Positions 1 to 26,412 of a stretch of DNA of 35,892 nt are shown here, piece after piece; the stretch's first letter is position 1, and every line of letters starts with the position of its first letter. The stretch lies in the NCBI GenBank assembly GCA_944392635.1, contig CALXXH010000002.1, forward strand, positions 1-35,892. The letters are read 5' to 3'. The stretch comes from an uncultured Clostridia bacterium (GTDB taxonomy: Bacteria > Bacillota > Clostridia > TANB77 > CAG-508). Made by a program: the position numbers and the translations under genes. Under the pieces are notes generated by a model. That model was not told the DNA's origin. It saw only the letters and a program-made list of their open reading frames with translations, and searched no databases.

Positions 1-1289
1 TCTAATTGTACATATATATTTCCTTTTGATTGTGGATCTATATTTAATATTGCTTCATTTCCTCCACCGATTATTATTTTTGTATAGTTATCTACATTTT
101 CATTTGTTGTTGTATAATTTACTTCTGTTCCTGAAACTATACTTCCATCTGCATTCATTTGTGTTCCTATTCCAACTATATTTGCATATTTTGTATCATA
201 ATAATCTTCTAATTCATATATTTGTGTTTTTAGAGTTGTTGCTTGGTTCTTGATTGATATTACATATGTCATTTTTACACTCAATTTATCATCTGCATTT
301 TCTCCATCTTTATACATTATATCTGATGCATATAAATATCTTGTATATGACATTGATCCATATAGTCCTTCTTCTTGAAATTTTACTTGTGGCTCTAATT
401 CATGGGCCTCTGTTACTCCTTCATCTGCAAATTCATTTGCAAATACACCGTTTTCTTCCCATAAATCTTCATTTAATCTATCTGCATATACATATATATG
501 TTCTGCTCCTGCTACAGTCACATTTGCTCTTTCTATATCTTTTACTACTGATAAATCTGGTTGCTCTCTTTGATATAGTCCCATATTTATGTTTTCTATT
601 TCAGTTGTTCCTTGTTTTCTAATATCTTCTGCACTCTTAATGTCTGATAAATATCCACTTCCTCCTACTGATGTATATCCATTATATGTTGTTGCTGTAA
701 TTAAATATTGTTCATCTGTTTCATTTATTGGGAATAATTGTCCATCATATCCATATTCAACATTCTCTCCATAGTTTACACTACTTTTTTGTGTATTTGT
801 ATTATAGTCATAATTTATACTATGTATTTGCTCTCCATTTGAATTATTTGACTTTCCTACATTTTCTTGGTTATTATCATCATCTGCTATTTGTGCATAT
901 TCTGCATTAAATATGTCTCTTTCTTCTCCTTCTAATGCTTTTGAACCATTCTCATTTAATATATCTAATATTGGTACTGGCGTATAACTCATTCCATTAT
1001 ATGTGAATTCTATATAGTAATTATCAAGTTCATCTATTAAAACGTCTACCATTCTATATGCTCCATTTGCATCTGTCTTTATTTCATTTACTTCTTCACC
1101 TGAATCTGTTTCAAAACTAATTGTATTTCCATTTCCATCTTTTAATCTTACTGTTACATTTGCAACTAGCTTATCCCCATTTCTTTCATCTGTATCTGGA
1201 GCTGTATATAGATAATCTCTTACTGATGTTTTGCTACTTATCATGTCTTCCCATACATATCCTGAAAGTTTGATATATTTTCTTCTGTT
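1..1289. repeat. Copy 1 of a near-identical ~1.29 kb tract shared by B3 and B2 (partner at 9690..10954); truncated by the window edge.
   Basis: Base 1 aligns to 9690 (offset 9689). After a 24-nt indel the offset becomes 9665. The shadow ORFs 728..910 and 10393..10575 give identical 60-aa translations, and 589..774 versus 10254..10439 differ at 2 residues. Similarity stops abruptly at 1289/10954. Confidence 0.9.
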
Positions 1290-3239
1290 ATTATATGTAA
1301 TTGTACTAAATCCTGAATCAGTAACCCCTGATGCATCTGTTAAATCATTTAGTCTGTATCTTTGAGCTGCTGAACCATTATTAGTATGTACTTGCACATT
1401 TGTCGTATTAGCTGATGAACCATTAGTAATATCCATATATAATCCATTACATTTTGAAACTAATGAATAATTTCCATTTCCTTCATCTTGTATCTTCCAT
1501 TTTTGCGCATCTGTATCATTTCCTTGATATATTTGCACATTTGCACCTGGTGAAGTACTTGCTCCTGCTACTTCTACATATTTATTAGCAGATAATGAAA
1601 TTATTGAATAATATCCTTCCCCTAAATATCTTATATAGAATTTTTGTGCAATTGATTTATTCATATCATATAATGCAACATTTGCACCATTATATGTATA
1701 TGCATTGGTTACTTCAATTACTTTATTAGCCCCTACATTTGATTGGATTTCATATGTTCCATCTTCTATAACTTTTTGATCATCATCTATAATATTTGAT
1801 TCAGGAACTGTTGTATATGATTTTTGTCTAGTTACCTCTATTGTAGAAATAGCACCTGTTCCAGTTTCACTTCCATTATCCCAAGATATATAATCATCAT
1901 CTAATTCATATCCGTAATAATCATCACCTACTGAAATCTCTTCTACAATATATGTACCCACTAAAATATTATGAATTTGTATTAATCCTTCACTGTCTGT
2001 TATGAATATTGTAGCTTCACTTTCATTAGTAGTTGTAGTCATATTACTAAAATAAACTTCACCTTTTGCTTCACTTATTGGCTCTCCATTTTCATCAATT
2101 CCTATTACATATTCACTATTTTCATTCATAACTCTATATCTTATATTTTCCATTGGCATTCCACTATCGCCATAATCTGGATCTTTTTTTACTATTTCAA
2201 GGTTTCCTGTTTGTTTTTCATTAGTCAAACTATATGTTCGAAGTATTCCTGAATATATATGTACTTCTTCACTTTCAAGTATTTCATATCCATAATGTCC
2301 ATTTGAAACTTCACTTATTTGATATACTCCTGGAGTTAAATTGTCAACATGAATTGATCCATTTTCATCTGTTGTAAATGTTTCGTCATATCCTAACTCA
2401 TCACTTTTTACATTTATTTCTACATTTGGAAGTTTAACATCACTATCATCTGCATCTTGTTTGATTATATCTAAACCTGCATTAAAGTTTACCCATTGAA
2501 CAGTAGCTGATGTATTTTCATCCCAATAATCATCACCTTCTTCATATACATAATCAGTAGTAACAACTCCTTGGTGATTTTTGTAATAATTAACTGCATC
2601 ACAAGTTCCTCCAATATATGTATAATGTCTTGATCCTGTTTTAGTCCAATGACGATGAAGGCTTCTTGACTTAGTTTGTGTAAGACTTACACTACTTATT
2701 CCTCTATCATATAAGGTAGATGATAAACTTATATAAAAATCTATATTTCCTGTACTTCCAAAAGGATTATTACCATTTCCATTTGCATCACATAACCCCC
2801 ATCCATCTATTCTATTACCAGATTTATCTAGTATAGTTATAGTTTGTCCTGTTGTATTAGTAGTTATTTGGAATGGTCCTAAAACATAGTTATTACCTAT
2901 TTTTCTTACACCTATTTGGTCGTTTCTCTTTGATAATTGTACTCCTTCTGATATAGCATTTGTAGCACCATAATTTATTGCCGTAGTATTATTATAATCA
3001 TTACTATATGAACTTTCACTATGATAGCAATATGCATTATCTCCTTCTATATCTGTATGCCAACCTGCTGCTACCCATTCATGATTTGAGCAATATCCTG
3101 TTCCTGTTGGTCCTCCTGAAAATCTATGTTGAGTACGACTTTCATAATGGAAGTTTACCGCAAAAGCATTTCCACAAGTAAACATTCCAACTAGGACAAA
3201 TAGCATTATAGAAACTCCAAGCTTTGATATTTTACCTAT
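1..3239 (-). CDS. B3: third B-type giant surface adhesin paralogue. Its 3' end lies beyond the window start, and no stop, SD or ATG separates it from A3 upstream.
   Basis: Hand translation of the minus frame is open from 7049 down to base 1. The ORF is missing from the track only because it has no stop in the window. From 3239 it reads IGKISKLGVSIMLFVLVGMFTCGNAFA/VNFHYES. This is a 27-residue signal-peptide-like segment in exact register with the B1 and B2 signal peptides, with ATA where they have ATG. It is followed by a Cys-containing head and SpaA/CnaB-like modules (GLDIIKQDADDSDVKLPNVEINVKSDELGYDETFTTDENGSIHVDNLTPGVYQISEV). Next come a ricin-B module and an RRKYIKLSGYVWEDMISSK... stalk almost identical to B2. 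Confidence 0.7.
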   Translation of the reverse strand, partial: MGKISKLGVSIMLFVLVGMFTCGNAFAVNFHYESRTQHRFSGGPTGTGYCSNHEWVAAGWHTDIEGDNAYCYHSESSYSNDYNNTTAINYGATNAISEGVQLSKRNDQIGVRKIGNNYVLGPFQITTNTTGQTITILDKSGNRIDGWGLCDANGNGNNPFGSTGNIDFYISLSSTLYDRGISSVSLTQTKSRSLHRHWTKTGSRHYTYIGGTCDAVNYYKNHQGVVTTDYVYEEGDDYWDENTSATVQWVNFNAGLDIIKQDADDSDVKLPNVEINVKSDELGYDETFTTDENGSIHVDNLTPGVYQISEVSNGHYGYEILESEEVHIYSGILRTYSLTNEKQTGNLEIVKKDPDYGDSGMPMENIRYRVMNENSEYVIGIDENGEPISEAKGEVYFSNMTTTTNESEATIFITDSEGLIQIHNILVGTYIVEEISVGDDYYGYELDDDYISWDNGSETGTGAISTIEVTRQKSYTTVPESNIIDDDQKVIEDGTYEIQSNVGANKVIEVTNAYTYNGANVALYDMNKSIAQKFYIRYLGEGYYSIISLSANKYVEVAGASTSPGANVQIYQGNDTDAQKWKIQDEGNGNYSLVSKCNGLYMDITNGSSANTTNVQVHTNNGSAAQRYRLNDLTDASGVTDSGFSTITYNNRRKYIKLSGYVWEDMISSKTSVRDYLYTAPDTDERNGDKLVANVTVRLKDGNGNTISFETDSGEEVNEIKTDANGAYRMVDVLIDELDNYYIEFTYNGMSYTPVPILDILNENGSKALEGEERDIFNAEYAQIADDDNNQENVGKSNNSNGEQIHSINYDYNTNTQKSSVNYGENVEYGYDGQLFPINETDEQYLITATTYNGYTSVGGSGYLSDIKSAEDIRKQGTTEIENINMGLYQREQPDLSVVKDIERANVTVAGAEHIYVYADRLNEDLWEENGVFANEFADEGVTEAHELEPQVKFQEEGLYGSMSYTRYLYASDIMYKDGENADDKLSVKMTYVISIKNQATTLKTQIYELEDYYDTKYANIVGIGTQMNADGSIVSGTEVNYTTTNENVDNYTKIIIGGGNEAILNIDPQSKGNIYVQL
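1341..1775 (-). other. Ricin-B-type (beta-trefoil, CBM13-like) lectin module inside B3.
   Basis: Codon-by-codon translation gives VIEDGTYEIQSNVGANKVIEVTNAYTYNGANVALYDMNKSIAQKFYIRYLGEGYYSIISLSANKYVEVAGASTSPGANVQIYQGNDTDAQKWKIQDEGNGNYSLVSKCNGLYMDITNGSSANTTNVQVHTNNGSAAQRYRLNDL. It contains three subrepeats of about 45 aa, each ending in a Q-x-[WFY] motif (QKF, QKW, QRY). Confidence 0.65.
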
Positions 3240-3335
3240 ATTAAATTTTAGCTTAATTGCCACAATAGTTAATATAGCTATAATTAATACTATTACTCCA
3301 ATAGATATATACATTCCTAAACCTGTACTTATAGA
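3240..3335 (-). other. A3 C-terminal sorting-signal-like segment (SISTG + TM + KLKFN) with no stop codon after it.
   Basis: Codons were read individually: SISTG is at 3335..3321, LGMYISIGVIVLIIAILTIVAI at 3320..3255, and KLKFN at 3254..3240. Next comes ATA GGT AAA at 3239..3231, which continues into the B3 signal peptide. Confidence 0.8.
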
Positions 3336-6300
3336 AATAATTAATTGTGCTTCTGAATAATCGTCTTCATTAGATTTTCTATTTCCTGGTGTTGAATCTG
3401 CATCATTTACTCCTTCTATAGTATCTACACTTCCTATTTCTGCTGCATTTGTAAATGTACCTGTATCTTCTCCATTCATTGTTTTTGTCAATGTCAAAAC
3501 TATTTCTTTACTTTCACCTGGATTTAAATCTTGATTCATTAAACTTCTATTAACTAATAATTTACCATCAGTTGTCCAGTTAGTATTACCTTTTGAAGAA
3601 AAAGTTAATCCATCAGGTATATAATCATATATTTCACTTACCTTTACTTTTGCTTCTCCTTCATTTGTAACTACAATTTTATATGTTACTGAAACTTCAG
3701 CACCATTAATTTCTTTAGCTCTTATTTCTACTCTACCTAATTTTGTATTATCATATGAATAATATTTTGTTCCTGAATTTGTTGTTACAGAAACATTTGT
3801 TAAATATTTGTCTAGTTTTAAGTCATATCCATTTTTATTTACTAAACCAATATCTATATTATTTGCATCTTGTGTTAAGCTTATAGTATCTGTAACTCCA
3901 ACATTTACTCTAACTCCATTTAAAGTTATTTCTTGCATCGTTACATCAGAGTTTGAACTTTCTGGTACTCCATTTGCATTATATTCTGTTAATAAATAAT
4001 TTTGTGTATTATATCTAAATATTACAATGTAATTTCCTTGCTTTAAATTTGAAAATGTATATCTACCATTATTAATTGTTGTAGTTGCTTTTACATTGTT
4101 TGAGTCTGCCATATCTACTAACATTACTTGTAATCCACTTATTAAAGGTTCATTGTCTTGTCTATTACCATCTCCATTTACATCATTCCAAGAAGTTCCT
4201 GAAATACTATATACTGTGTCATCTGGATTACTTGGTTCTTCTGGATTAGTTGGATTTTCTGGATCTTCTGGATCAGTTGGTTCACCAGGTACACTTGGTT
4301 CATAACCTTCATCAACATTATATGGTAATATGATATGCTTTATGACATTAGATATTTTTGTATCTATTTTATCTATTGTTTCACTTTCAGTTATGTGATC
4401 CATATTAGGAGCTTGAACTATTGCACTGTTTTCTATTTCTGTTCTTTCAAACACAAGTCCAGCTGTGGTTTTAACTGTTATATTTACAGTTTCTCCTTTT
4501 GGTATATTTATATAAATATCAACATTTGGTAATTTATTTCCATCTGTGTCTGTTACTGAAGAATATAGCTCCTCTGTTGCTACTTTTTTTTCACTATATC
4601 CTATTGGTACTTGTACTTCTCCTTCATCACCAGTTACTGTTTGAAATTCTTTATCAAAATATTCATAAGTCACACTTACAGGATTTACATTTTCAGGTAA
4701 ATAATCTAAGACATTTACATATATACCTTCAAGATTACTATTTTCCTGATTCTTTGGTGCACTTATACATTTAATAGAAATATTATAATTTATTTTTTCT
4801 CCATATCTAACTTCTTCACCTTCATTGTCAGAAGACATTGTTACTGACAATTCTGAAACATTATAAGGTATAATATTTTCATTTGTTTTATATTCTTTGT
4901 CATCTACTATAACTACAGCATTTGCTTTTAATTTTACTTCTCCATTTTTTGCTTCTAGCTCTCCACTCTTTATTTGTTCTTTTACAATTGATTCATCACC
5001 TATTATTAGCCCTAGTTTATAGGTTCCACTTTCACTTGCAGTTATTGTAACTTCAGTTCCATTATAACTTATTGAAGCTCCTGTTATTGGTTCTTCATCT
5101 TCTTTAAGGTCTATATTTGTACTATATTGCGTTTTATATGCCTCAAGATATACTCTACCATTTGAAACATTTTGTTCTGTTATAGAAAATATCTTTGGTA
5201 AAGTTAATTTTATTGTTGCTTGTTTCCCTTCTGGAATATCTAAATTAACCCCATAAAGCCATTCATCGTCTGGTCCATCCATTTTTGACCAAAGAAAAGC
5301 TTTTACTTCTGCTTGTTCAACAACATTATTCAAAGTATAATTATAACTTTCAGTATTAGCAATATATACTTTTATATTAGTTATTATCTCTTTTTGTGCC
5401 TCTTCATCTAACAAATCTTTTACTTGCACTTCATATGACTGCTCTATAGTTTGACCAGCTTTTAAAGTACCTATATTTATCTCTTTTTCTTTTAAATCTT
5501 CATCAAAATTATATTGATAGCTATAATCATCTGGAAAACTAAAGTTTGAATCCAATTCTCCATATTTTGTTCCATCTGGTATAGTTCCTACTACTCTTAT
5601 GTCTTCAATATCTTTATCTAATGTATTTGTAATTTTTACATTATATTTTATGAATTCACCTTCATAAATAGTATCACCATCTTTTAGATTTGTATTTCCT
5701 CTTACTGGGTCAATTTCAACTTTTAGTCCTTCAATTTCTTCTACTGTTGCTGTTCTAACACTTTCTTCTACATTTTTTTCTGCTGCCTCAGTAATTGTTG
5801 ATATTAAATCATTTCCTTCATCTAAGATATTTGAATCGTTTTTAGTAAGATTTTGTTCATTTTGTACTTCTTCATAGTTTTCTATCGATACTTCCTTTTC
5901 TATATTTCCTTGTTCAGAAGTAGCATTTGTAGTAAATTCATTAGTATAAAGTAGATTTATTTTACTTTGAGCACTTTCAATATCTTTTTTCAAAATTACA
6001 ACTGCAGATATTTTCAAATCAGTCATTAAACCTAAATCATTTTCACTATATCCTGTTTGTATTCCATTTAGATTTGCAACTATACTTAAATTTCCATTTC
6101 CATCATTCTCAATATATGCATTTTCTAATGTTAAACCATTTGAATAAACAACAGATGTATTATTTATTATAACTTTTTCAACTTGATTTGGTAATTGTAT
6201 TCTTACAGTTGGATTCTTAAAAAGATTATTTCTTATAGATGTTGAGTCTAAAGTAATATCAAATGTAACTTCATTTTGCTTTCTATTAGTCCATTCTGCA

Positions 6301-7521
6301 TTATCTAAATTTAAATTTACACTTGTTTGAGAATCTTTTATTTCTATAATATTTTCATTTTCTACATGATATACTTGTTCTTCTACTATTTCTCCTTCTT
6401 CATTCTCTTTTTCATTTATCCCTACTAAATTAAAGCTTGTAGTAATTTGTGTAATATCTAAATTTAAATTATCACTTTTTATTGCTTTTAAATTTTCGAT
6501 ATATAATGTTCCTACATTTTCAATATTACTTGTTCTAATTATTATTTTATTAACATCTTCATTATATGTAAGTACTATTTCTCCATTTTCGTTATACTCT
6601 GTAGTATTGTCTATTGTAAATAAGACATTTTCATCTACATCCAATATTTCAATTTTTCCATTTTCACCTAAAAGATTTTTTACATCCTCTTGTCTAATTT
6701 TTGTACTTTTATATACTATATCATTATTTCCAGAAAAATAATTATCTTCCGTAAAAGCTATTTTTTGTTGTATATCTTTTTTACTAATCATAATTTCTTG
6801 AGTTTCTTTATATTGAGTATCATAAGTAGTTCCGTTTATTATATTAGATTTAATATATCCATTATATACTTCATCTGTACTATATGTGACAGATGTTAAA
6901 TTTCCTATATTTTCTGTTACGTTTTCTTTGAAAGTCCCTTGACTTTCTATTTCTTTATTATCATCTGTAAATAATGCTGTTTTTAGTTTTACATCATAAG
7001 ATACTTCTCTTTCTGGTTGTTCTCCGTGTATATGTGTCATAATAACAAATTAATATATATTCATCTCTATCTTCTGGACTTATTTGTGTAGTATTTATTG
7101 CTTCTCCATTCTCATTTTCATTACTAACATTTATTGTTAAAGTTCCATTATTTGAATCATAACTATAATCCTCTTCTATGTTAGTTGTTTGTCCATTTGT
7201 TACTTTTGTACTTTTTTCAATTACTTTTACATCATATGGAAATTTACCATCAATTTGATTTAAATTAATGGCTATTTGTGTATTTTTTACTGGATAATAA
7301 ATTTCTCCATATTCAATTCCTGTTTTAAGGCTATATTGTACTAAAGTACCATTCTCCCCACTAGATAAATCATAGTTTACGTACTTATCTAGTCCTCCTT
7401 CAAGAATAATTTTCTCTTCGTCTGCCCCAAAACTTTCTTTAGTCACTATTTGATTCATAATTAGCACTAAAATCGCCAAAAAGATTAATGTAAATATTTT
7501 TCCAAAAGTCCCCTTCTTCAT
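3240..7521 (-). pseudogene. A3: third A-type giant wall-anchored repeat protein. It is interrupted by a +1 frameshift near 7026-7040 and has lost its stop codon, so it reads into B3.
   Basis: GGAGG lies 6 nt before the ATG at 7521. Track ORF 6994..7521 encodes the signal peptide MKKGTFGKIFTLIFLAILVLIMNQIVTKESFGA and the first domain, then degenerates to TRRTTRKRSIL-stop. The +1 frame, open from 7049 with an ATG at 7040, continues protein-like: HGEQPEREVSYDVKLKTALFTDDNKEIESQGTFKEN... It runs on to an SdrD-B-like module (ISGTSWNDVNGDGNRQDNEPLISGLQVMLVD...GRYTFSNLKQGNYIVIFRY), a DUF11-like terminal domain and SISTG. Confidence 0.65.
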
Positions 7522-7555: not shown

Positions 7556-7584
7556 ATTATGTAATCATTTTCAACTTTTTTCAA
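7556..7584 (-). promoter_or_regulatory. Candidate sigmaA promoter of cassette 3.
   Basis: On the minus strand: TTGAAA (7584..7579), a 17-nt spacer, then CATAAT (7561..7556), about 35 nt upstream of the A3 ATG. A second TTGAAA lies 5 nt downstream of the first. Confidence 0.4.
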
Positions 7585-7713: not shown

Positions 7714-7745
7714 AAAATAAAAACGGGCATAAACCTTACGCCCGT
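7714..7745 (-). terminator. Rho-independent terminator after B2.
   Basis: On the minus strand: ACGGGC, an 11-nt loop, GCCCGT, then TTTTATTTT. It begins 9 nt after the B2 stop. Confidence 0.7.
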
Positions 7746-7753
7746 AATATTTT

Positions 7754-16864: not shown

Positions 16865-19800
16865 TTAGGAATTTTTAGCTCCGTTTCCTAATCCCTTTTT
16901 CTTAATTACAACTATTCCTACTGCTAATGCTATTAATGCTATAACTCCTACCGTAATTCCTACTATCACTGCTGTATTTGTTCCTGTAGGTGGTGTAATT
17001 ATTACTGTTTCTGCCATATCTTCATCTGTCTCTTTATCTCCTGTTCCAGGTATATAGTTACCTGGTGTTGATACTAAGTCTGCTCCTCCTGTTTTATCTA
17101 CTTCTACCATTTCTGTTTCATTATCATAAGAAATATCCTCTTCACTTGATGATAAAATTCTTGAAACATTTAACATCACATTTGCTGAAGCTGTTGGCTC
17201 TATTTGTGTATCTTTTAGCGCATCTGTATATAATATTGTTTTGTCATTTATTGTAGAAGTTTCATTTTGATATACATCTTCTGCTAATAAGTCTTTTACA
17301 TCATCTAGTTTTTTTACTTGCCACTCTGGATTTGCTTCATTATTAAATGCCCAATCTTTGTCTAGATAATCTATAATTCCAGTTGCACTAATTTTTACTA
17401 CATCTCCTTCTACAATTCCATATTTATAGAAGTTTTCTGATAAGTAATCTAACTCACTATTATTTGTTGCTATAAATTCATAACCTACTTCTAATGTCGC
17501 ACCTTGCATCATTTCATTATCTAATTCAACTCTTACAAGTCCATTATTTGGTTCTGTACTATCAGATGGTTTAATATATGTCACTCCTTGTTTTTCTCCA
17601 GTAATTGTTCCATCATCTTCAATAGTAACATTTGTTATAACTTGACCATTTGCAAGTGTAATTTTTAAGTTTCTAACTTTTTTAGCTAATCCTAAATCTT
17701 GTCTTGCTCTTTCTACAATTCCAAAGTCAACATTATCAATTCTATATGTATATCTATCTCCTGCTGATGCTGTTGTAGTTGTGTCATATTCTACACCTAT
17801 TCCCATTGTTGGTGTTGTAGAATCCATTTTATCTATAGTTGTAGTTGTTCCATTTTCTATATGCTTAATTTCATCATCTATTGCTAATCTTTGTTCATAA
17901 TCATCTAAAGCATCTGTATAACGAATATCTACATCTTTTTTATACCATTCTTTATCACTTTGGTCTCTATCTTTGTTATATACTGTACCTTTATAGTTTT
18001 GTACTGTATATGTTTCATTTCCCCAAGTGTATGTTAATGTATAGTCTCCTGGAATATATCCACTGATATAGAAATCTCCGTTACTATCAGTTGTAGCTGT
18101 ATATACTTTTCCACTTCCTGTATTTTCTGTTAATGTGATTTCTACTCCTTCTATTCCTAATTCTCCATCTTCATATTGTCCACTACCTTGACGTACCTCA
18201 CCTGTCATTAATTCTCCTGTTGTAGAATCTAAGAATACTTTACCTGCAATTTCTCTTGCGTCTGCAACTTCTAATTGTAATGATAAGCTTGCATCTGTGT
18301 CATCTTCATATGTTGATTTATCTTCTGGGTTACAAACTCCTGGGTTTGAGTCTTTATCTATACCAGCATATACATTACCATTTTCATCAAATACTGAATA
18401 TGAATTGATTTCTACAACATTATCAAGATTTTCTTGTCCATTTAATATATTAATTACTGCTTCTCTATTTAATTCAAATTGTACATATATAACTCCATCA
18501 TTTTGTGCCGTTGTTTGTGGATCTAATCTTGTATTGTTATAAATTATAACTTTGTTGTAATTTTCATTATATGTTCCATCTTCATATTCCATATTTCCAG
18601 TTACATTACCTTTTTCATCTACGCCTGTACCTATTCCAACTATACTATATCTACTATCATAATAATCAACTACACTATTTGCTTGAGTAATTAAATTTGT
18701 TGATTGATTTCTTATTGCAATTTTATATGTAATATATACTTTTAGTTCTTTGCTCTTATCTTGTTCATTTACATATTCATAATCTGCTTCATAAATTGCT
18801 CTTGTATATGGCTCTTGTGCATATTTTTCTCCAAATTTAACACCTACATTAAATCCTTCTCCACCATAGTTTTCTGGATGACTAAATCTTTGTGCATATT
18901 CATATGTATGTTCATATCCATTAACTGCAACTCTTACATTTTCAATATCTTTTGCAATTGCCATATCTGGTTGTTCTCTTTCATATAATCCTAAATTAAT
19001 ATATTTAATTTCCTCTTGTCCTTTCTCATAATTATTAATTAGGATAAAGTTTGCAACATCTGTATCTGCTATTATTGTATATTGTCCATTATTAATTAAT
19101 GTTGATTGATGTTGTACTGGATCATAGTTATATGACAATTGATGTTTTTCATTTCCTTCAGCATCTCTAGTATATCCCGTATTTTGTGTTCTTCCTTCTA
19201 CTACACTAAAGTTTTTATTAAATGCATCTCTATTTTCTGGATCTTCTGCTGATTTTGAGCCATTATCTTTATCTAAATGTGGTGTTACATTTGTATATGT
19301 TAATCCATCATATTCAAATTCAATATAGTAATCACCTAATTTTTCTAATAGAACATTTTCAAATAGGTATGAACCTCCATTTGAAGTTGTTGTTTCCATT
19401 ACAGTTGCACCTGTTGTTCTATCTTTTAGTCTTACTGGTACACCATCTAATAATATGTCATTAGTATCAAAATCATCATCATGATATAAGTCATTTCTTA
19501 TCCATTGTTTTTGGTCTTGTTTATCTACCCATACATAACCAGATAATTTAATACGTAATACAATGTTATAGTCAAAAGGTGTAGTAATTTCTTCTGTTGC
19601 TGTATATGGCTCTCTAATAATTAAGTTTTGTAAATATCCATTTGTAGCCTCTAAGAACCAAATTTTAACACCTTTAACATCTAATTTTGCACTTGCTGTA
19701 ACTTTTGTTATTCTAGTTACTCCTGTATCTGCTGGAACTGATATATAGAAATCTCTACCTGATGTAATTCCATCTACTCCATACCAGTATTCACTATTTC

Positions 19801-20455
19801 CATTAAAACTACTATATAATAATCCATTTATACTATTTCCATTTTGGTCAGCAACTGTTACACCTGTAATACTTCCTCCAAATGACCAGTTAAATGGTCC
19901 TATTCTCATATAATCTCTTCCGTCTTTATTATAAGTATGTACACTGATATTATCTTTATTAGTATTATCTGTTATACTTAAATTTCCTACTGTTCCTATA
20001 TAGTTACTAGATTCTGTATCTAACCAGTTTGAACTACCATTTTGGTTACTTGCAAATCCACTATATAATCCTGCATGATATTGTCCAACTGCTTGCATCC
20101 ATGTATACATGAAATTCCAAACAGCATTTGCAACTGGTCCACTTCCTTTTGATCCTCCATTGTCTTGTGATAGTATATATGCAAGTTTAGCATTATAATC
20201 ATGTGTAATTTGTTTTCCTGTATAGTCTGTTGAAGTTTTTCCTTTTATATCTACTTGTGAAATAACTCTATAATAGTTTATACTTCTTAATGCTTGATGA
20301 TGTTCCACACAATAGATATTAGGATCACTTAGATATTGATTATATGTTACTGCTAAATTTTGACCTACATAATATGCAGAACTTACAGTAGATAATCCAA
20401 ATAGTCCAACTATTGCAAATACTATACTAAGAACAATTTTCTTTATTTTACTCAT
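16865..20455 (-). CDS. B1: 1196-aa wall-anchored adhesin, homologous to B2, with a TPPTG sorting signal. Its head has the thioester-type Cys motif but no Gln at the aligned TQXA position.
   Basis: Track ORF, with AAGGAGG 9 nt before the ATG. The signal peptide is MSKIKKIVLSIVFAIVGLFGLSTVSSA. It contains NIYCVEHH, PVANAVW, YMRIGPFNWSFGG (compare B2 YVRVGPFNFSFAG) and IKLSGYVWVDKQ. It also contains GLYEREQPDMAIAKDI, DFGIVERARQDLGLAK and GKVFLDSTTGELMTGE...NGDFYISGYIPGDYTLTYTWG. Confidence 0.85.
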   Translation of the reverse strand: MSKIKKIVLSIVFAIVGLFGLSTVSSAYYVGQNLAVTYNQYLSDPNIYCVEHHQALRSINYYRVISQVDIKGKTSTDYTGKQITHDYNAKLAYILSQDNGGSKGSGPVANAVWNFMYTWMQAVGQYHAGLYSGFASNQNGSSNWLDTESSNYIGTVGNLSITDNTNKDNISVHTYNKDGRDYMRIGPFNWSFGGSITGVTVADQNGNSINGLLYSSFNGNSEYWYGVDGITSGRDFYISVPADTGVTRITKVTASAKLDVKGVKIWFLEATNGYLQNLIIREPYTATEEITTPFDYNIVLRIKLSGYVWVDKQDQKQWIRNDLYHDDDFDTNDILLDGVPVRLKDRTTGATVMETTTSNGGSYLFENVLLEKLGDYYIEFEYDGLTYTNVTPHLDKDNGSKSAEDPENRDAFNKNFSVVEGRTQNTGYTRDAEGNEKHQLSYNYDPVQHQSTLINNGQYTIIADTDVANFILINNYEKGQEEIKYINLGLYEREQPDMAIAKDIENVRVAVNGYEHTYEYAQRFSHPENYGGEGFNVGVKFGEKYAQEPYTRAIYEADYEYVNEQDKSKELKVYITYKIAIRNQSTNLITQANSVVDYYDSRYSIVGIGTGVDEKGNVTGNMEYEDGTYNENYNKVIIYNNTRLDPQTTAQNDGVIYVQFELNREAVINILNGQENLDNVVEINSYSVFDENGNVYAGIDKDSNPGVCNPEDKSTYEDDTDASLSLQLEVADAREIAGKVFLDSTTGELMTGEVRQGSGQYEDGELGIEGVEITLTENTGSGKVYTATTDSNGDFYISGYIPGDYTLTYTWGNETYTVQNYKGTVYNKDRDQSDKEWYKKDVDIRYTDALDDYEQRLAIDDEIKHIENGTTTTIDKMDSTTPTMGIGVEYDTTTTASAGDRYTYRIDNVDFGIVERARQDLGLAKKVRNLKITLANGQVITNVTIEDDGTITGEKQGVTYIKPSDSTEPNNGLVRVELDNEMMQGATLEVGYEFIATNNSELDYLSENFYKYGIVEGDVVKISATGIIDYLDKDWAFNNEANPEWQVKKLDDVKDLLAEDVYQNETSTINDKTILYTDALKDTQIEPTASANVMLNVSRILSSSEEDISYDNETEMVEVDKTGGADLVSTPGNYIPGTGDKETDEDMAETVIITPPTGTNTAVIVGITVGVIALIALAVGIVVIKKKGLGNGAKNS
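16868..16996 (-). other. B1 sorting signal: TPPTG + TM + KKKGLGNGAKNS.
   Basis: The TPPTG codons were verified at 16996..16982. They are followed by TNTAVIVGITVGVIALIALAVGIVVI and KKKGLGNGAKNS. Confidence 0.8.
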
Positions 20456-20475
20456 ATTTCTACATCCTCCTTCCT

Positions 20476-23400
20476 TTATATATCACCTTTTTTAGCTTTT
20501 TTTCTGTATATTACAATACCAATTCCTATTAATGCTAGTATTATAACAACTATTGCACTTATCATTATAGCTCCACCTGTTCTAATACTTAAGATAACAT
20601 CTGCACTACCTAAATCATTTTCTCCTGCTTCTTGATTTCCTGGTGTTGAGTTTACATCTTTAAGTCCTAGGTCATTATAATCCTCAGCAATTTCTGCTCT
20701 ATTGTTTATACGTCCTGTATTATCTTCTGTCATTGATTTTACTAATGTTAAAGTTACTGTTTTTGTTTCACCTGGTGCAATTGGTTCATTTGATAATACT
20801 GATGTATATATTCCATTTTCTGCTTGATACCAATCTTTGTTCATTTCTGAGTTAAATGTTAAATCACTTGGTATATAATCAACAATTTTTCTTGCATATC
20901 CTGTAACATCACCTACGTTTGTAACTTTTATTTGGAATTCAATAATTGCTGTTGTTCCATTTACTCTCTTTGCATCTATCTCAGCTTTTGCCATTGTTTC
21001 ATCTTGATATTCTTTTACTGTTGTTCCACTTGAATTTTGTAAAATTATTTTACTTACATATTTATCTAATTTCAAATCATAATTTTGTAATAAAGCAAGT
21101 CCAATATTTATATTTGAAATATTACCATTATTTACTTCTAATATATCTGTTGAAGCAACTTCTTGGTCAGTGTTTTCTATATTTAAAGTATTCATTAGTA
21201 CAGATGAATTATTATTATCTGCAATTCCTGCTGCTTTATATTTAGTTAATGTATATTTTGTATTATCATAATCAAATACTGCAATATATCTACCATTTGC
21301 TATTTTATCTAATACATATACACCATTTTCATTTGTTGTTGCTTCTAAAACATTTCCATCAGTTGTTTTTACAAAATTATTAGTTTCTGCATTTAATAGT
21401 CTAACCTTTATACCACTTAAAAGTTGTTCTCCTTCATCTTTGCTACCATTTGCATCTTCATCAAACCATGCAAGTCCTGTTATTGTCATATTACCTTTAG
21501 CAATATCATTATCATCTACATCATTATTTCCATTAAAGCTTCCATCATTTGCTTGAATAATATGATTAATCTCAGCCGTTGTTGCTACTCTTTCACCATA
21601 CACTTCTGCATACGCAACATTTGTAATTGCTTCTGCAGTTGTTCTTCCTGCTGAATAGTTAACTACTGTATTTATTACAATTGTTGCATCTTGATTTGCT
21701 TCAATTTGTACTGGTATTTCTAAGTTATTTGTTGTAATTCCTTCAACAGGTGCTCCATTTAGTGTTACACTTTCAATATTTAATTGTGAAGGTATATTAT
21801 CTTTTACTACTAATCCTGATGTTCTTGAAGTACTTGAGTTTTTAATATTAATTGTGTATTGTATTGTATCTCCTGCTTTTACATATTGACTTTCTGTTTG
21901 TGTTTCCATACTTAAATTAATATCAAAACTTTCAACTCTATCTTGCCATTCATTTGAGTTATATTCTTTTTGTCCATCATTTGCAATTACTGAGAATTGA
22001 ATATTATCTGCATTTGAATCTTTAATTGTCATATCATAACTTAAGACCTTTGATTGTCCTGCATCTAAACTACCTATACTAATTTCATCTTGATATTCAA
22101 TTTCTTCTGTTTGTATATTATTTGATGCTTCAGTTATTCCAGATTCTTCAGTTTCTGTAGCAACTACATCACTATCTGTATTATATATATCTCCATCTTC
22201 TTTTCCCATTCCTGTAATTAAGTTTAATCTGCTAACATCTAAGTTATTAGAAATGTTTGTATTTATTTTTACATCTTCAATATTACTATTAGAGATATTT
22301 TCAATAATTGCAAAATATTGTACTGCTCCTGATTCATATAAATCTACTTTTCTATCTGTTACACGTTTTACTGTAACTCTTAAATTTCCAGTTTCAGTTG
22401 TAAGTGTATTTGTATCAGTTTCTATTGTTGCTTCTCCATATTTAATTTGTGCTTTATTCTCAAGTCTTGTTCCTTCTTTAGTATCACTATCTACTCTTAC
22501 CTCATATGAAACTGTTTTTACTTCTCCTACTTCTAAACTATCAATTGTTGTCTTAAATTCTCTATCTTCTAATTCTTCATAATATGAAGCTCCTGTGTAC
22601 TCATAATTTTCTTCTGGTACAACCATTGTTGTTCCTTCTGGTACTTGTGCTGTAACTTCGATTCCAGTCATATTTTGTGAACCTGTATTTGAAACTTCTA
22701 TATTATATCGAATTACTTCTCCATTTTTTACATTTTGAGTAATTTCATTTCCTACACTTGTTGCAGATAATTTTGCATCCACCTTAGGTCCTACACCTGT
22801 TTCTAATGTAATCTCTGTTGAATCTATATTTCCTTCTACTGCAGTTTGTTCATTAGTATAACTTACATTATATGATTCTTTTGCTTGTTTGTTGTATTCT
22901 AAGTTTTCTGGATTTTCTATTGGGTATGAAAACTCAATACTTTCTCCTGTTGCTAAGCTATCTGCTACAACTAAATATTTTTTAGCATCTTGTGTAAATT
23001 CTGTACTCCATCCATTTGCATTATCATTTACATCATTTGTTGCATCTTCATTTTCTGTATAATATGTCTTAACATCTTCTTTACTTACTTGCATACCATT
23101 TAAAATCTTTGTTCCTAAATTGTTTGTTTTACTATCAGTTGGAAATGTACCAAGAATTTTTACATCTTTCATATTATTTTCATTTGTATTAATTACTTCT
23201 GCATTTACATTTAACTGATTTGGAACTTGCGCGCTAAGTAAGTTTACACTTGTATTTTCTTCTTGACCTGTAGTTTCTAATGAAATCTCAGGTATACTAT
23301 TAATTACAGCCATATCTTGTGGTGCAATTATTTTTATTCCTTGTTCTTGTCTTCCTTCATCTTGATATGAATGTGCAATTTCATTTTGATAATACATTGT

Positions 23401-25263
23401 AATTTTAGAATCTAGTGTTGCAGAATTTCTATTTAATTTTAAATTAGCATTAACTACTAATTCTGCTCCTTCAACTGCCATATCTTTATAGTTTGTTTGT
23501 TTTCCTTCTAATGTAACTACAATATTTCTTCCTTGAACATTATAACTTTTAAGCTTTAATTCTCCTTCATATAGAAGTTCTACACTTGTAATTTCAGCAC
23601 TTTGAACTTGTTCTGGTAATTCAAATGTAATTACTGGATTTTGATACAAGTCGTATTTTTCATTATTTGATAATAATGTGGCTCTCATTTCCACAGAATT
23701 ATCTACTACTGTTGATAAAGTGTTTTTATTTATCTCAAATTTACTTTGTGTTGTTGTTTCTTCTAATGTTATATTATTTTCTACTTGTCCTAAATCTTGT
23801 TTGTTATATCCTACTTTACTTATATATCCAACTTGTGAGATTTCAGCTATATTTGATGTTTCTGGAACAAGTTTTTTATAGTTTTTAATATTAAGAGTTC
23901 CTTCTGTTACTGGCTTTGATGTTTCAAATCTTATACTTGCTGGATCCCCACTATATGTAATAACTATATTTTTATCATCATCAATTTGACTTGATGCTGT
24001 AATTCTCCCTATTTCTTCATTATTTTGATTATATACAATTATTTCTCCAGTTTCTCCAAACAATTTATCAAAATTTTCTTTTGAGATAACTGATTTTGTA
24101 TATACTTCTTTTAATAAATTTTGATTAGCATTTTCAGTAATTTCTACACTATTTATTGCTTTTGCCAAATTTATATCTACACTAGTATTTGTAACATATT
24201 CTTTTTCTAATCCAGCATATAATCTTCCTTTATATATACTTGCTTCTTCTGGATATGATGAAATAGTTACAATACTATCTTTTTCTTCACCAGTCAAAGT
24301 AAGCTCTTTAGAAGCTGTTATTTCTTTATTGTCATATAATCTTACTTTTTGTTCTGTAGTAAATCTTTGACCATCCACGTTTGCATCATTATCATATATA
24401 AATGTTAATATAACTTTTTCATTTCCATCTGTTTTCCATTTAATTTCATTATTATTTGCTTCATTTGTAAATTTCATATTAACATTTGATCCATCTAAAG
24501 AATAATCATAATTTGTCATCGTATTAAGAGTTACAACTCTTGATATTTCTGGCATTTCTCCATTAATAGATGGAACTGCAAGTTTTGTTTCAATTTCTTT
24601 TATTGGATAATTATTATCTTTTAATCCTAATTTCCAAGATAATTGAACAACTCTTTTTTCTTGTCCATCTACTGACATTACTTTATTTGTAATTACTTCA
24701 ATATCATTTGATATATTCTCAGCTGTATAGTTTTCTGTAAGAGATAATTTTACTTCTCTTGTTGCCTCAATTGTTTTATCTCTCTCACTACTATCATAAT
24801 ATGTACCATCTAATTTAATTACATTTGTTTTATTCAAATTATCTAAATTAAATATTTCATCTTTATTTAATTCGATCTTTACTTTTGCATCTACTAATGT
24901 ATTTGCATTAATTTGATTAAATGTAATTGTATTTCCTTCTATTTTGTTTACATAGCTACTATCTGTATCTTTTAATGAAAAATTACTATCTTCTATTGTA
25001 ACCTTTCCATTGAAATATCCTTCTTGTTTTACTTGAATTTGCATATATAGATAGATATCTTCTTGATTAGCCATATCTACTGAAGATATTGCTTGATTAT
25101 CTCCATTTACAAAATATGCATCAAATTCAATATTTCTATTATTAGTTTCTACTGTACTTGCTGCATAACTAATAAGACTTGAACCAACAAATAAAAAGTT
25201 TGTTAATGTCAAAGTCATTATTAACAAAATAATCATACTTATTTTAAAAATTTTGTTTTTCAT
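20476..25263 (-). CDS. A1: ~1595-aa wall-anchored multi-repeat surface protein with an SIRTG sorting signal.
   Basis: Track ORF 20476..25281; AAGGAGG lies 8 nt before the ATG at 25263 (MKNKIFKISMIILLIMTLTLTNFLFVGSSLISYA). DUF11-like repeats are present (VKNGEVIRYNIEVSNTGSQNMTGIEVTAQVPEGT). An SdrD-B-like module is present (ITGLAWFDEDANGSKDEGEQ...NGVYVLDKIANGRYIAVFDYD). The terminal domain reads DLKLDKYV...VTNVGDVTG...DVNSTPGNQEAGENDLGSADVILSIRTG. Confidence 0.85.
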   Translation of the reverse strand: MKNKIFKISMIILLIMTLTLTNFLFVGSSLISYAASTVETNNRNIEFDAYFVNGDNQAISSVDMANQEDIYLYMQIQVKQEGYFNGKVTIEDSNFSLKDTDSSYVNKIEGNTITFNQINANTLVDAKVKIELNKDEIFNLDNLNKTNVIKLDGTYYDSSERDKTIEATREVKLSLTENYTAENISNDIEVITNKVMSVDGQEKRVVQLSWKLGLKDNNYPIKEIETKLAVPSINGEMPEISRVVTLNTMTNYDYSLDGSNVNMKFTNEANNNEIKWKTDGNEKVILTFIYDNDANVDGQRFTTEQKVRLYDNKEITASKELTLTGEEKDSIVTISSYPEEASIYKGRLYAGLEKEYVTNTSVDINLAKAINSVEITENANQNLLKEVYTKSVISKENFDKLFGETGEIIVYNQNNEEIGRITASSQIDDDKNIVITYSGDPASIRFETSKPVTEGTLNIKNYKKLVPETSNIAEISQVGYISKVGYNKQDLGQVENNITLEETTTQSKFEINKNTLSTVVDNSVEMRATLLSNNEKYDLYQNPVITFELPEQVQSAEITSVELLYEGELKLKSYNVQGRNIVVTLEGKQTNYKDMAVEGAELVVNANLKLNRNSATLDSKITMYYQNEIAHSYQDEGRQEQGIKIIAPQDMAVINSIPEISLETTGQEENTSVNLLSAQVPNQLNVNAEVINTNENNMKDVKILGTFPTDSKTNNLGTKILNGMQVSKEDVKTYYTENEDATNDVNDNANGWSTEFTQDAKKYLVVADSLATGESIEFSYPIENPENLEYNKQAKESYNVSYTNEQTAVEGNIDSTEITLETGVGPKVDAKLSATSVGNEITQNVKNGEVIRYNIEVSNTGSQNMTGIEVTAQVPEGTTMVVPEENYEYTGASYYEELEDREFKTTIDSLEVGEVKTVSYEVRVDSDTKEGTRLENKAQIKYGEATIETDTNTLTTETGNLRVTVKRVTDRKVDLYESGAVQYFAIIENISNSNIEDVKINTNISNNLDVSRLNLITGMGKEDGDIYNTDSDVVATETEESGITEASNNIQTEEIEYQDEISIGSLDAGQSKVLSYDMTIKDSNADNIQFSVIANDGQKEYNSNEWQDRVESFDINLSMETQTESQYVKAGDTIQYTINIKNSSTSRTSGLVVKDNIPSQLNIESVTLNGAPVEGITTNNLEIPVQIEANQDATIVINTVVNYSAGRTTAEAITNVAYAEVYGERVATTAEINHIIQANDGSFNGNNDVDDNDIAKGNMTITGLAWFDEDANGSKDEGEQLLSGIKVRLLNAETNNFVKTTDGNVLEATTNENGVYVLDKIANGRYIAVFDYDNTKYTLTKYKAAGIADNNNSSVLMNTLNIENTDQEVASTDILEVNNGNISNINIGLALLQNYDLKLDKYVSKIILQNSSGTTVKEYQDETMAKAEIDAKRVNGTTAIIEFQIKVTNVGDVTGYARKIVDYIPSDLTFNSEMNKDWYQAENGIYTSVLSNEPIAPGETKTVTLTLVKSMTEDNTGRINNRAEIAEDYNDLGLKDVNSTPGNQEAGENDLGSADVILSIRTGGAIMISAIVVIILALIGIGIVIYRKKAKKGDI
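20479..20589 (-). other. A1 sorting signal: SIRTG + TM + RKKAKKGDI.
   Basis: The SIRTG codons were verified at 20589..20575. They are followed by GAIMISAIVVIILALIGIGIVIY and RKKAKKGDI. Confidence 0.8.
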
Positions 25264-25307
25264 AATGATGGCCTCCTTCATTTTTCACATTTTTCCATCT
25301 ATTACAT

Positions 25308-25336: not shown

Positions 25337-25531
25337 CAGTTCTGTTGGATTTTTTAAAGTTTTTATGTAACTTTATATAGGCAACAATAAAATTAAATAC
25401 ACCTTTTTGAAATATAATACATTATTTTTTTATATGTTATTTTCCTACAACAAGAACATATAATTTTGAAAAATCATATAATAAACATAGATTAATATAT
25501 TGTGAATATATTAAAATAAGAGGTGATTTTC

Positions 25532-26008
25532 TTGAATAATATGAATTTTGATGAAAATACAATAAACAAATTAAAAGATATGATGAATAAAGGAGAATTA
25601 AATGATGTTATTTCACAAATCCCACCAGAAATGATTCAAAACTTTTCATCGATGATGTCAAACTCTGGTAATAACAAAAATGAAAATAACAATTCTAATA
25701 ATAATAATAATATAAATAATGCTAATAGCAACACATCTAATAATAATTTTGATTTTAGTAATATTGATATGAATACTATATTAAAAATGCAATCTATTAT
25801 GAGTAAAATGAATAATTCAAATGACCCAAGATCAAATTTGCTATACTCTCTTAAACCATATTTAAGAGAAGAACGAAAAGCAAAGGTAGACCAATATGCA
25901 AATCTTTTAAATGTTGCTAAAATAGCTGAATTGTTTAATAATACTAATAACAACTCTAGTCAAAACATGAATAATAACAATAATAATAGAGAAGGGAATC
26001 CTAAATAA
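25532..26008 (+). CDS. Hypothetical Asn-rich protein.
   Basis: Track ORF 25523..26008 starts at a GTG inside the SD AGAGGTGA. TTG at 25532 (5-nt spacing) or ATG at 25541 is the more likely start. It has long poly-N/S low-complexity tracts flanking MNTILKMQSIMSKM and DPRSNLLYSLKPYLREERKAKVDQYANLLNVAKIAELF. I do not recognise the family. Confidence 0.55.
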   Translation: MNNMNFDENTINKLKDMMNKGELNDVISQIPPEMIQNFSSMMSNSGNNKNENNNSNNNNNINNANSNTSNNNFDFSNIDMNTILKMQSIMSKMNNSNDPRSNLLYSLKPYLREERKAKVDQYANLLNVAKIAELFNNTNNNSSQNMNNNNNNREGNPK

Positions 26009-26412
26009 TGCCTATTTTTCCTTTTTTTCAATATCCATATAATATAAATAGATATTATCCAAGGCACAATTCTTATACACAAAGAAATAACAATTTACCT
26101 AATACAAATGTAATTGAAAACGATTTAAATAAGAACATTAATAAGGACAATCAATATAACAAAGAAGAAACAAAAACAACAGAAGAAAGGAATTACTCCA
26201 AAAAACAAAAATCATCTAGATATTCTAGTTTTGGACCTATCTATTTTCAAAACCCATTATCTTTAGATAGTAACCAACCAGTTTTAGAAATACTAGGTAT
26301 TTCACTTTATCTAGATGATTTAATTATTCTAGGTTTACTATTTTTCTTGTATCAAGAAGGAGTAAAAGATGATATGCTTTTTTTGTCATTAATATTATTA
26401 CTTTTAAGTTAA
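26008..26412 (+). CDS. Hypothetical protein with an Asn/Lys-rich N-terminal half and a hydrophobic C-terminus.
   Basis: Track ORF. Its ATG overlaps the upstream TAA (TAATG), which suggests translational coupling. The C-terminus LEILGISLYLDDLIILGLLFFLYQEGVKDDMLFLSLILLLLS is membrane-like. Confidence 0.5.
   Translation: MPIFPFFQYPYNINRYYPRHNSYTQRNNNLPNTNVIENDLNKNINKDNQYNKEETKTTEERNYSKKQKSSRYSSFGPIYFQNPLSLDSNQPVLEILGISLYLDDLIILGLLFFLYQEGVKDDMLFLSLILLLLS

Follow-up and report, generated by a model that had tools for sequence, protein, structure and literature searches.

Surface-protein cassettes and the A3-B3 junction

The stretch of DNA analysed here (the window) comprises 35,892 nucleotides (nt) of contig CALXXH010000002.1, from an uncultured Clostridia bacterium. 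In this chromosome segment of 28% GC, three giant surface-protein cassettes sit downstream of minC, with all of their genes on the minus strand, to which the coordinates of all cassette features given below refer. Each cassette consists of a module A and a module B. In cassettes 1 and 2 the modules are separate genes (A1 and B1, A2 and B2), while in cassette 3 module A3 runs in frame into module B3. This A3-B3 junction and the gene family to which it belongs are the subject of the present work.

Module A3 ends with the motif SISTG (3321..3335). It is followed by a transmembrane segment (TM1) of 22 uncharged residues (LGMYISIGVIVLIIAILTIVAI, 3255..3320), predicted to act as stop-transfer and anchor; by the basic loop KLKFNIGKISK (3222..3254), with a net charge of +4 and predicted to be cytoplasmic; and by an internal segment resembling a signal peptide (3159..3221), composed of a hydrophobic region (h-region) of 14 amino acids (aa), LGVSIMLFVLVGMF, and the c-region TCGNAFA. 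The predicted signal peptidase I (SPase I) site is AFA/V at 3159/3158 (the slash marks the cut), and VNFHYES follows from 3158. An earlier note on this DNA had read the junction as ...AQLIISISTG LGMYISIGVIVLIIAILTIVAI KLKFN IGKISKLGVSIMLFVLVGMFTCGNAFA VNFHYES..., and re-reading of the minus strand from 3400 to 3100 returned exactly this sequence. The note had also described the lack of a stop codon and of a Shine-Dalgarno (SD) sequence, and at the position of the B start there is indeed no stop, no GGAGG-like SD and no ATG, GTG or TTG.

The in-frame fusion of A3 and B3 claimed by that note is real. The frame is free of stop codons from 7049 to 3, over 2,349 codons, and the remainder of A3 occupies 3336..7049 of it, with DUF7927, SdrD_B, CarboxypepD_reg and CLIPPER/DUF11 domains. 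Over these positions, the other two frames contain 283 and 322 stops, or 0.129 per codon, a density at which the chance of 60 codons without a stop is about 2.5e-4; for this reason the continuity between A3 and B3 goes beyond chance.

The elements on both sides of the junction can be recognized from the unfused cassettes. A2 ends with SIRTG, a transmembrane segment and KKKVLDTKM before its stop codon, and is followed by an 18-nt spacer with GGAAAGGAGG and then by B2, which carries a signal peptide of its own as well as a sorting signal with PPTG. The signal peptides of B1 (MSKIKKIVLSIVFAIVGLFGLSTVSSA, followed by YY) and B2 (MSKLKNKILIAIGFLIILLGISINSEA, followed by KT) have 27 aa each, and the 27 residues that start at the ATA codon of cassette 3 (3239-3237) share their geometry, in line with the alignment of these segments proposed before. 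The segment has a basic n-region, an uncharged 14-aa h-region, a polar c-region and small residues at positions -3 and -1 (judged by a crude rule and not by SignalP), as signal peptides do; its location is not N-terminal, since it lies about 1,428 residues into the precursor that is obtained when an upstream frameshift, described below, is repaired. TM1 and KLKFNIGKISK, for their part, have the layout of a sorting signal at the end of A3, with a hydrophobic segment followed by a positively charged tail. The loop KLKFNIGKISK thus corresponds both to the charged tail of an A anchor and to the n-region of a B signal peptide.

A junction model made with AlphaFold2 (AF2) from an alignment of five sequences presents a beta-strand at residues 183-193 (YSEAQLIISIS), then TG, and a helix-loop-helix in which the helices at 196-220 and 228-246 correspond to TM1 and to the signal-peptide-like segment. 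The predicted local distance difference test (pLDDT) score is 70-88 in the CLIPPER domain and below 50 in the N-terminal domain of B, so that the model is informative for the CLIPPER domain and the two helices only.

A family of fused genes in gut Clostridia

A search with the 567-aa segment around the junction found four proteins (P0001, P0002, P0003 and P0005), with identities of 32-54%, in which the junction lies in a single open reading frame (ORF) of the same design. A profile scan of one genome per species gave 80 loci, all in metagenome-assembled genomes (MAGs) of uncultured Clostridia or Bacillota of gut origin. When translated in frame, 46 of the 80 loci were fused, and the others stopped about 30-40 residues past the TG motif. 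The fused state is common to homologues with 32-58% identity from dozens of species. Contig ends leave 43 of the fused loci uncut, and in 35 of these the ORF is complete, with a median of 2,964 aa, a signal peptide at the N-terminus and an xxTG sorting signal at the C-terminus (e.g., ..VTEPTGENQNY..KKKVL at the very end), in DNA of 28% GC where about every eighth off-frame codon is a stop. Fused loci also occur in tandem on one contig (L012, L016 and L020; L014 and L015).

An exhaustive search with a hidden Markov model of the junction against 1.84 billion representatives of clusters at 50% identity matched 3,550 proteins; about half of the best 150 representatives have 2,700-3,400 aa and contain the junction profile (positions 1-485) in one stretch, at approximately residues 1,150-1,650. 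Members are abundant in uncultured gut Clostridia of human, mouse, rabbit and other animals. On the sequences compared, the A-B fusion is the normal design of a large family of predicted proteins of about 3,000 residues in uncultured gut Clostridia, and the interest of the system lies in this family-wide architecture rather than in the copy found in the window. A full-text search of the literature on internal signal peptides or sorting signals, in connection with sortase or within bacterial polyproteins, found nothing relevant, no names are recorded for members of the fused family, and the family is apparently undescribed in print. The components are ordinary (Sec signal peptides, LPXTG-type signals and CLIPPER/SpaA stalks); their combination is not.

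When the final 200 residues of module A were arranged in a neighbour-joining tree, A1 and A2 fell with all other unfused genes into one clade, and every other branch was fused, among them that of A3, which was placed beside L038 and L010. The tree is midpoint-rooted and its sampling is biased, and either state may be ancestral. The fused or unfused state follows the phylogeny and is therefore stably inherited, and the position of A3 in a deep fused group means that cassette 3 did not arise from a cassette like A2-B2 by a recent deletion of 33 nt.

Such a deletion had been suggested by the earlier note, which counted about 33 nt fewer at the junction than in A2-B2. The arithmetic is correct, since 15 nt separate the end of TM1 and the start of B in cassette 3 versus 48 nt in cassette 2, but the view that these nucleotides were lost locally did not hold; in a DNA alignment of the three A-B junctions the cassettes were too diverged for nucleotide-level deletion end-points to be trusted. 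In its general form, this explanation takes the junction as a local accident, either a recent deletion of about 33 nt, with a change of ATG to ATA, that left two genes joined as one decaying pseudogene, or an error made in assembly or sequencing. The missing 33 nt and the frameshift upstream in cassette 3 would agree with it. An accident of this kind is nevertheless extremely improbable in view of the fused homologues down to 32% identity, of the 35 complete ORFs of about 3,000 aa, and of the clustering of A3 with fused genes and not with A1 and A2. Furthermore, the repaired cassette 3 product (AB3) is collinear across the junction with the intact 3,114-aa ORF of L038: the two align in one high-scoring segment pair of 51.7% identity over residues 22-2462, which spans both the frameshift site and the A/B junction. 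An identical 44-mer at the junction was also found in three independent metagenome contigs (L001, L002 and L003).

Anatomy of the junction and dependence of module B on module A

The TG dipeptide directly before TM1 is invariant in all 80 loci. Module A ends with the motif x[IV]xTG, which is mostly [SG][IV][SG]TG in fused genes versus S[IV](K/R/V/Q)TG in unfused genes. Across the family, TM1 has 22-27 uncharged residues (median 23), and the loop has 9-15 residues (median 11) with a net charge from +3 to +7 (median +5). The second hydrophobic core has a median of 14.5 residues and precedes a polar c-region rich in N, Q, S and T. A cleavage-site picker placed Ala at -1 in 40 of 46 fused junctions and V, A or S at -3 in 39 of 46, and in about 33 of 46 the picked site was at a distance of 19-23 residues from the beginning of the h-region. 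This n/h/c geometry equals that of the free-standing B signal peptides and differs clearly from that of TM1, and it is kept across the family even though the sequence is not. The residues just past the predicted site resemble the N-termini of mature unfused B proteins, as in Tyr-rich starts.

Fused and unfused genes also differ in their translation signals. Eleven unfused loci have a downstream B gene, separated from A by 13-39 nt (with an outlier of 287 nt in L071) and preceded by a strong GGAGG-type SD and a start codon; the SDs between the A stop and the B ATG of the unfused cassettes are of the AAAGGAGG type. In fused genes, a 4-nt SD-like core with an in-frame start was present in the junction region of only nine of 47 junctions, and these were weak. 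Without a conserved internal SD and start, module B of the fused genes depends on translation from module A.

The same counts bear on the proposal that B3 is translated alone from an internal start, either the ATG at 3206 or the ATA at 3239, so that its continuity with A3 would be irrelevant. The ATG with GGAG 8 nt upstream reported by the earlier note lies exactly where it was placed (GGAG 3218-3215, ATG 3206-3204, i.e. GGAG-N8-ATG at 3218-3204), and with A3 frameshifted it would be the sole simple route to a B3 product in this strain. Its role as an alternative start was not upheld: the ATG and GGAG stem from Met and Leu-Gly-Val codons of the h-region and are not conserved (nine of 47, as above), a product starting with Met-3206 would have a signal peptide without its basic n-region, the ATA has no SD at all, and the unfused cassettes all use SDs of the type given above. 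Independent initiation of B3 is thus very unlikely.

The A-to-B loop was found in another state in cassette 2 of L008 (14060-14100 of that locus; GCA_947623945.1, CANQHU010000003.1), where it is encoded by runs of A (acaaaaaacggaaaaatt). Owing to a shift of 1 nt in these runs, module A stops at ..LYKKRKN and the B signal peptide (KININKIAKTTF..AKA/YW) lacks a start codon; further frameshifts are present in the same cassette. The A-runs of L008 may represent a slippage-prone point at which B is switched on or off.

Predicted topology and processing

It is known that positively charged loops tend to remain in the cytoplasm (positive-inside rule), that SPase I requires small residues at -3 and -1, and that the h-regions of cleavable signal peptides are shorter than transmembrane anchors. 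The topology proposed in the earlier note, with A outside, TM1 running from out to in, the loop inside, the second hydrophobic segment running from in to out and B outside, agrees with the topology predicted from conservation among the homologues. A complete member of the family comprises an N-terminal Sec signal peptide; a module A of about 1,430 aa, which is built of CLIPPER/DUF11, SdrD_B and similar stalks and ends with x[IV]xTG; TM1, of about 23 aa; a Lys-rich loop of 11 aa; a segment resembling a signal peptide, with an h-region of about 14 aa, a polar c-region and a V/A-x-A site; and a module B of about 1,600 aa, which contains SpaA/SdrD_B and lectin domains and closes with an LPXTG-like sorting signal.

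In such a protein, export of A would be begun by the N-terminal signal peptide and halted by TM1, and the basic Lys-rich loop would be kept in the cytoplasm by the positive-inside rule. The second hydrophobic segment would then re-engage SecYEG as an internal signal peptide, leading to export of B, and SPase I would cut after the conserved Ala, which in the window is within AFA/VNF at 3159/3158. Finally, sortase would anchor B to the wall at its own LPPTG, while A would be held in the membrane by TM1, with the loop and signal-peptide hairpin attached; a sortase cut at SIST/G would be less likely. A single ORF would enforce co-synthesis of A and B at a ratio of 1:1 and their co-localised secretion, a coupling that unfused cassettes would approximate by the gap of 13-39 nt and the strong SD. 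We propose this scheme of stop-transfer, re-export, cleavage by SPase I and wall anchoring of B as the probable fate of the fused precursor.

The main alternative is that the fused protein stays uncut, as one chain of about 3,000 aa on a central two-helix hairpin, with both modules outside and the C-terminus anchored to the wall by LPXTG. The topology would be the same as in the cleavage scheme, and the combined h- and c-region, with about 21 residues, has sufficient length for a membrane span. The second core, with about 14 aa compared to 23 aa of TM1 and followed by a polar c-region, has nevertheless the geometry of a signal peptide, matching the free-standing B signal peptides, and the residues after the site resemble mature B N-termini. 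In addition, the small residues at -1 and -3 counted above occur at a conserved distance despite low sequence identity. We regard an uncut chain as rather unlikely.

It is also conceivable that both cuts take place, sortase acting at S-I-S-T/G to transfer A to the wall or to a polymer, and SPase I freeing B, with a membrane peptide of about 58 aa left behind. The invariant TG, the hydrophobic segment and the basic stretch in the 80 loci reproduce the tripartite layout of a sorting signal, and motifs without Pro, such as NVQTG, have been reported as sortase substrates in Clostridioides difficile. The resolution of A3 by sortase that the earlier note had envisaged is possible but was not supported. 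SISTG has no Pro, whereas the B signals of the same proteins are of the type [LTV][PEGA][PASN]TG with a polar spacer, and a canonical LPPTG signal is found on module B only. In the AF2 model, whose confidence is moderate to low, S-I-S belongs to the beta-strand that closes the CLIPPER domain and abuts TM1, without a linker before the membrane. A scan of NCBIfam for sorting-signal models returned only TIGR01451 and lectin matches and was uninformative for the cell wall sorting signals of both A and B, and a search for sortase in the window or the fetched loci, by a crude TLxTC signature scan, gave no match. Processing by both enzymes is accordingly an unlikely outcome.

Several points weigh against the scheme of stop-transfer, re-export and cleavage by SPase I. 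The 21-residue segment could simply span the membrane. The site picker is crude, and in about 13 of 46 junctions its choice fell implausibly within the h-region; for most of these, later sites were located by eye only. The AF2 model is poor overall, with a mean pLDDT of 51. Eight of the 43 fused loci, as well as L007, L008 and the window itself, are frameshifted, so that some copies are decaying, and the window as it stands cannot make the precursor described. The family, moreover, is known from MAGs and metagenomes only; artefacts of assembly are an unlikely source of its long ORFs, since the junction lies within single contigs of many projects.

A more far-reaching interpretation would define a new class of secreted polyproteins, in which an ORF of about 9 kb directs two passes through SecYEG, a loop has a dual role, SPase I with or without sortase produces two anchored adhesins, and slippage acts as a switch. 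We hold this as possible but on balance doubtful. If true, the class would have a strict 1:1 ratio of its products at the same secretion site, with a small TM-hairpin peptide as a possible by-product, and the AAA Lys codons of the loop would be homopolymer tracts that switch B on and off, as in cassette 2 of L008.

State of the cassette 3 allele

The start of A3 lies in a separate ORF of 175 aa (6994..7521), which has an SD, an ATG and a Sec signal peptide (..KESFGA/DEEK) and stops after a frameshift. The frameshift site, tat aca C gga gaa (7021..7032), contains one extra base, the C at about 7026, relative to the frame of intact homologues. In an alignment, 10 homologues with 34-59% identity read through this site with the sequence ..ICYYDTYT(E/Q/N)E..ERE... 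Six metagenome contigs, drawn from several samples and from three assembly sources, encode the identical 175-aa product, and three of them (L001, L002 and L003) reach across the junction. The first in-frame ATG of the fused ORF, at 7040, falls within the overlap with the upstream ORF and lacks an SD.

These observations contradict the polyprotein drawn in the earlier note as far as this genome is concerned: the frameshift at about 7026 severs the fused ORF from its start codon, SD and signal peptide, and the cassette 3 precursor therefore cannot be made as described unless the frameshift is corrected. Cassette 3 has the frame-disrupting mutation of a pseudogene, a 1-nt insertion, and shows neither secondary lesions nor loss of expression signals, as a promoter-like site, the SD and the ATG are retained. 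The promoter-like site, TTGAAA-17-CATAAT (7556..7584), is upstream of the A3 start and is a consensus match only; a terminator-like hairpin follows B2 (7723..7745). With these elements, cassette 3 appears to have its own expression signals and to form its own transcription unit. The lesion looks recent because the 2,349 codons of the window (3,061 in L001) stay open at the off-frame stop density given above, and because the B2 terminator, the promoter-like site of A3 and its SD-ATG are intact. Judging from its sequence, cassette 3, a copy of an otherwise functional gene type, has most likely lost its activity recently or is expressed poorly at best.

Programmed +1 frameshifting at ACA-CGG was considered and is unlikely, as there is no slippery re-pairing and no conservation, and the homologues are in frame. 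Alleles with 0-3 bases at this site were also sought in a metagenome collection from which the lineage is absent, with 0 matches.

The same lineage in other contigs

Between 8710 and 2408, one substitution is all that separates contigs L001 and L002 from the window; beyond this stretch lies a mosaic segment of about 93% identity (compared to window positions 2407-2180 and 1-2060). Being one substitution away, they belong to the same lineage; they confirm that the sequence is real and add no evolutionary depth. The C-terminal 3.2 kb of B3 in L001 and L002 is 91.5% identical to the C-terminal part of B2 in the window (7753-10954), which suggests recombination or gene conversion between cassettes.

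In L005 (1592-3263; ERZ24773479 NODE_39552, coverage 2.1), a match of 100% to window positions 8065-6475 is followed by unrelated DNA that includes a gene with an AraC-type helix-turn-helix. This contig either derives from a strain in which cassette 3 is rearranged or deleted, or is a chimera of low coverage. L007 (10001-16901; ERZ21549425 s6439.ctg007165l) carries an orthologous fused cassette that is broken into at least eight frames or ORFs, with the junction in frame. The breakage could be real decay or could come from indel errors of long reads, as the contig is of long-read style.

Domains of modules A and B

PF01345 has recently been renamed CLIPPER and represents an isopeptide-bonded stalk domain of fibrillar adhesins (PMC12617251). 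The A proteins contain CLIPPER/DUF11, DUF7619 and SdrD_B domains, and the B proteins contain SpaA, SdrD_B and CarboxypepD_reg-like domains. PF01345 scored 32.4 bits in AB3 (cutoff 24.6), 58.7 bits in A1 and 60.7 bits in A2, and AB3 also gave 61.3 bits for SdrD_B and 48.7 bits for SpaA. As in CLIPPER/DUF11 fibrillar adhesins, isopeptide-type stalk domains are thus present in the cassette proteins above the Pfam thresholds.

Module B3 (3..3158) runs off the window and comprises an N-terminal domain with the motif FSGGPTGTGYC, SpaA/SdrD_B domains and lectin repeats. The repeats, of the ricin-type beta-trefoil (approximately 1356-1754; RicinB_lectin_2, E=2e-37), are present in B3 and not in B1 or B2, which suggests that cassette 3 is of a glycan-binding type. 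The end of B3 is seen in L001, where the fused ORF has 3,061 aa and closes with VTVLPPTGLETDYIAYTLLTLSSLGILVSGIILIKKYVLRRD, that is, with LPPTG, a transmembrane segment and KKYVLRRD; its sorting signal, ..VTVLPPTGLETDY..KKYVLRRD, is canonical and belongs to a part of B3 that the window does not contain, and spoIIE follows. B1 and B2 end with TPPTG, a transmembrane segment and KKK.

The first 230 residues or so of mature B (2400-3158 in B3, and also in B1 and B2) form a conserved Cys-containing domain with the motif F[ST]GGPxGxG[YW]C. This domain had no Pfam match, and a sequence search of the Protein Data Bank with the B3 domain gave nothing significant. Its assignment as a thioester domain (TED), considered from motifs like YCVEH and AQVALW in B1 and B2, was unsupported by a relaxed Pfam scan.

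Comparison with known systems

The cassette proteins resemble the sortase-anchored fibrillar adhesins and pilin-like proteins of Gram-positive bacteria (PMC12617251) in their Sec signal peptide, in the long stalks of isopeptide-type Ig-like domains, in the xPxTG motif, hydrophobic segment and basic tail of module B, and in the tandem arrangement of their genes. They differ from them in that two proteins are joined in one ORF, the upstream module ends with the Pro-less x[IV]xTG, and the upstream basic tail doubles as n-region of a downstream internal signal peptide. The family in this way departs from the usual Gram-positive scheme of one gene, one signal peptide and one sorting signal.

Also comparable are the unfused A/B cassettes (A1-B1, A2-B2 and L055-L088), which have homologous modules in the same order, the TG, transmembrane segment and basic tail at the end of A, and the same geometry of the B signal peptide, and which are unlike the fused genes in the stop codon and the 13-39 nt with an SD and ATG that part A from B.

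The nearest precedents are FbcH and the pneumococcal Zmp proteases. FbcH of Bradyrhizobium japonicum is a precursor that is cleaved at an internal signal peptide and from which cytochrome b and cytochrome c1 are produced. As in FbcH, a single ORF encodes here two exported or membrane modules parted by a transmembrane segment and an internal signal peptide with AXA. In FbcH, which is from a Gram-negative bacterium, the partners are a polytopic and a small c-type cytochrome, whereas the present family joins two exported adhesin modules of about 1,500 aa each in Gram-positive bacteria, with sortase-type anchoring and a cleavage that is predicted. The pneumococcal IgA1 protease, ZmpB and ZmpC have an N-terminal LPXTG followed by hydrophobic segments, and thus share with the family an internal sortase-type motif and transmembrane segment with large extracellular parts beyond. 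In these proteases the motif is near the N-terminus of a single enzyme, and there is no second full-size module exported through an internal signal peptide.

The fused genes would offer a natural test system for stop-transfer and re-initiation by Sec, for SPase I at internal sites, and for the co-secretion and stoichiometry of paired adhesins. Gene callers and predictors of signal peptides and LPXTG signals will mis-describe the family, and frameshifted copies will be split into misleading fragments. Members of the family may be major host- or glycan-binding surface structures.

Unfused cassettes and neighbouring genes

Cassette 1 (16865..25281) comprises A1 (25281-20476, 1,601 aa) and B1 (20455-16865, 1,196 aa), and cassette 2 (7754..16609) comprises A2 (16609-12263) and B2 (12244-7754). 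An exact look-up of B2 found it not on record. The A2 ORF as called mechanically opens at a TTG (LRRFNMKTMKKM.., 16609-16580), and its true start is probably an ATG a few codons further downstream.

The other genes of the segment include radC, mreBCD, a gene for a PBP2-type transpeptidase, and minC. Between A1 and minC there are two adjoining ORFs of 161 and 134 aa on the plus strand (25523-26412), with no Pfam match. A gene for a PD-(D/E)XK family transposase (32947-33843, minus strand) adjoins radC-mreBCD.

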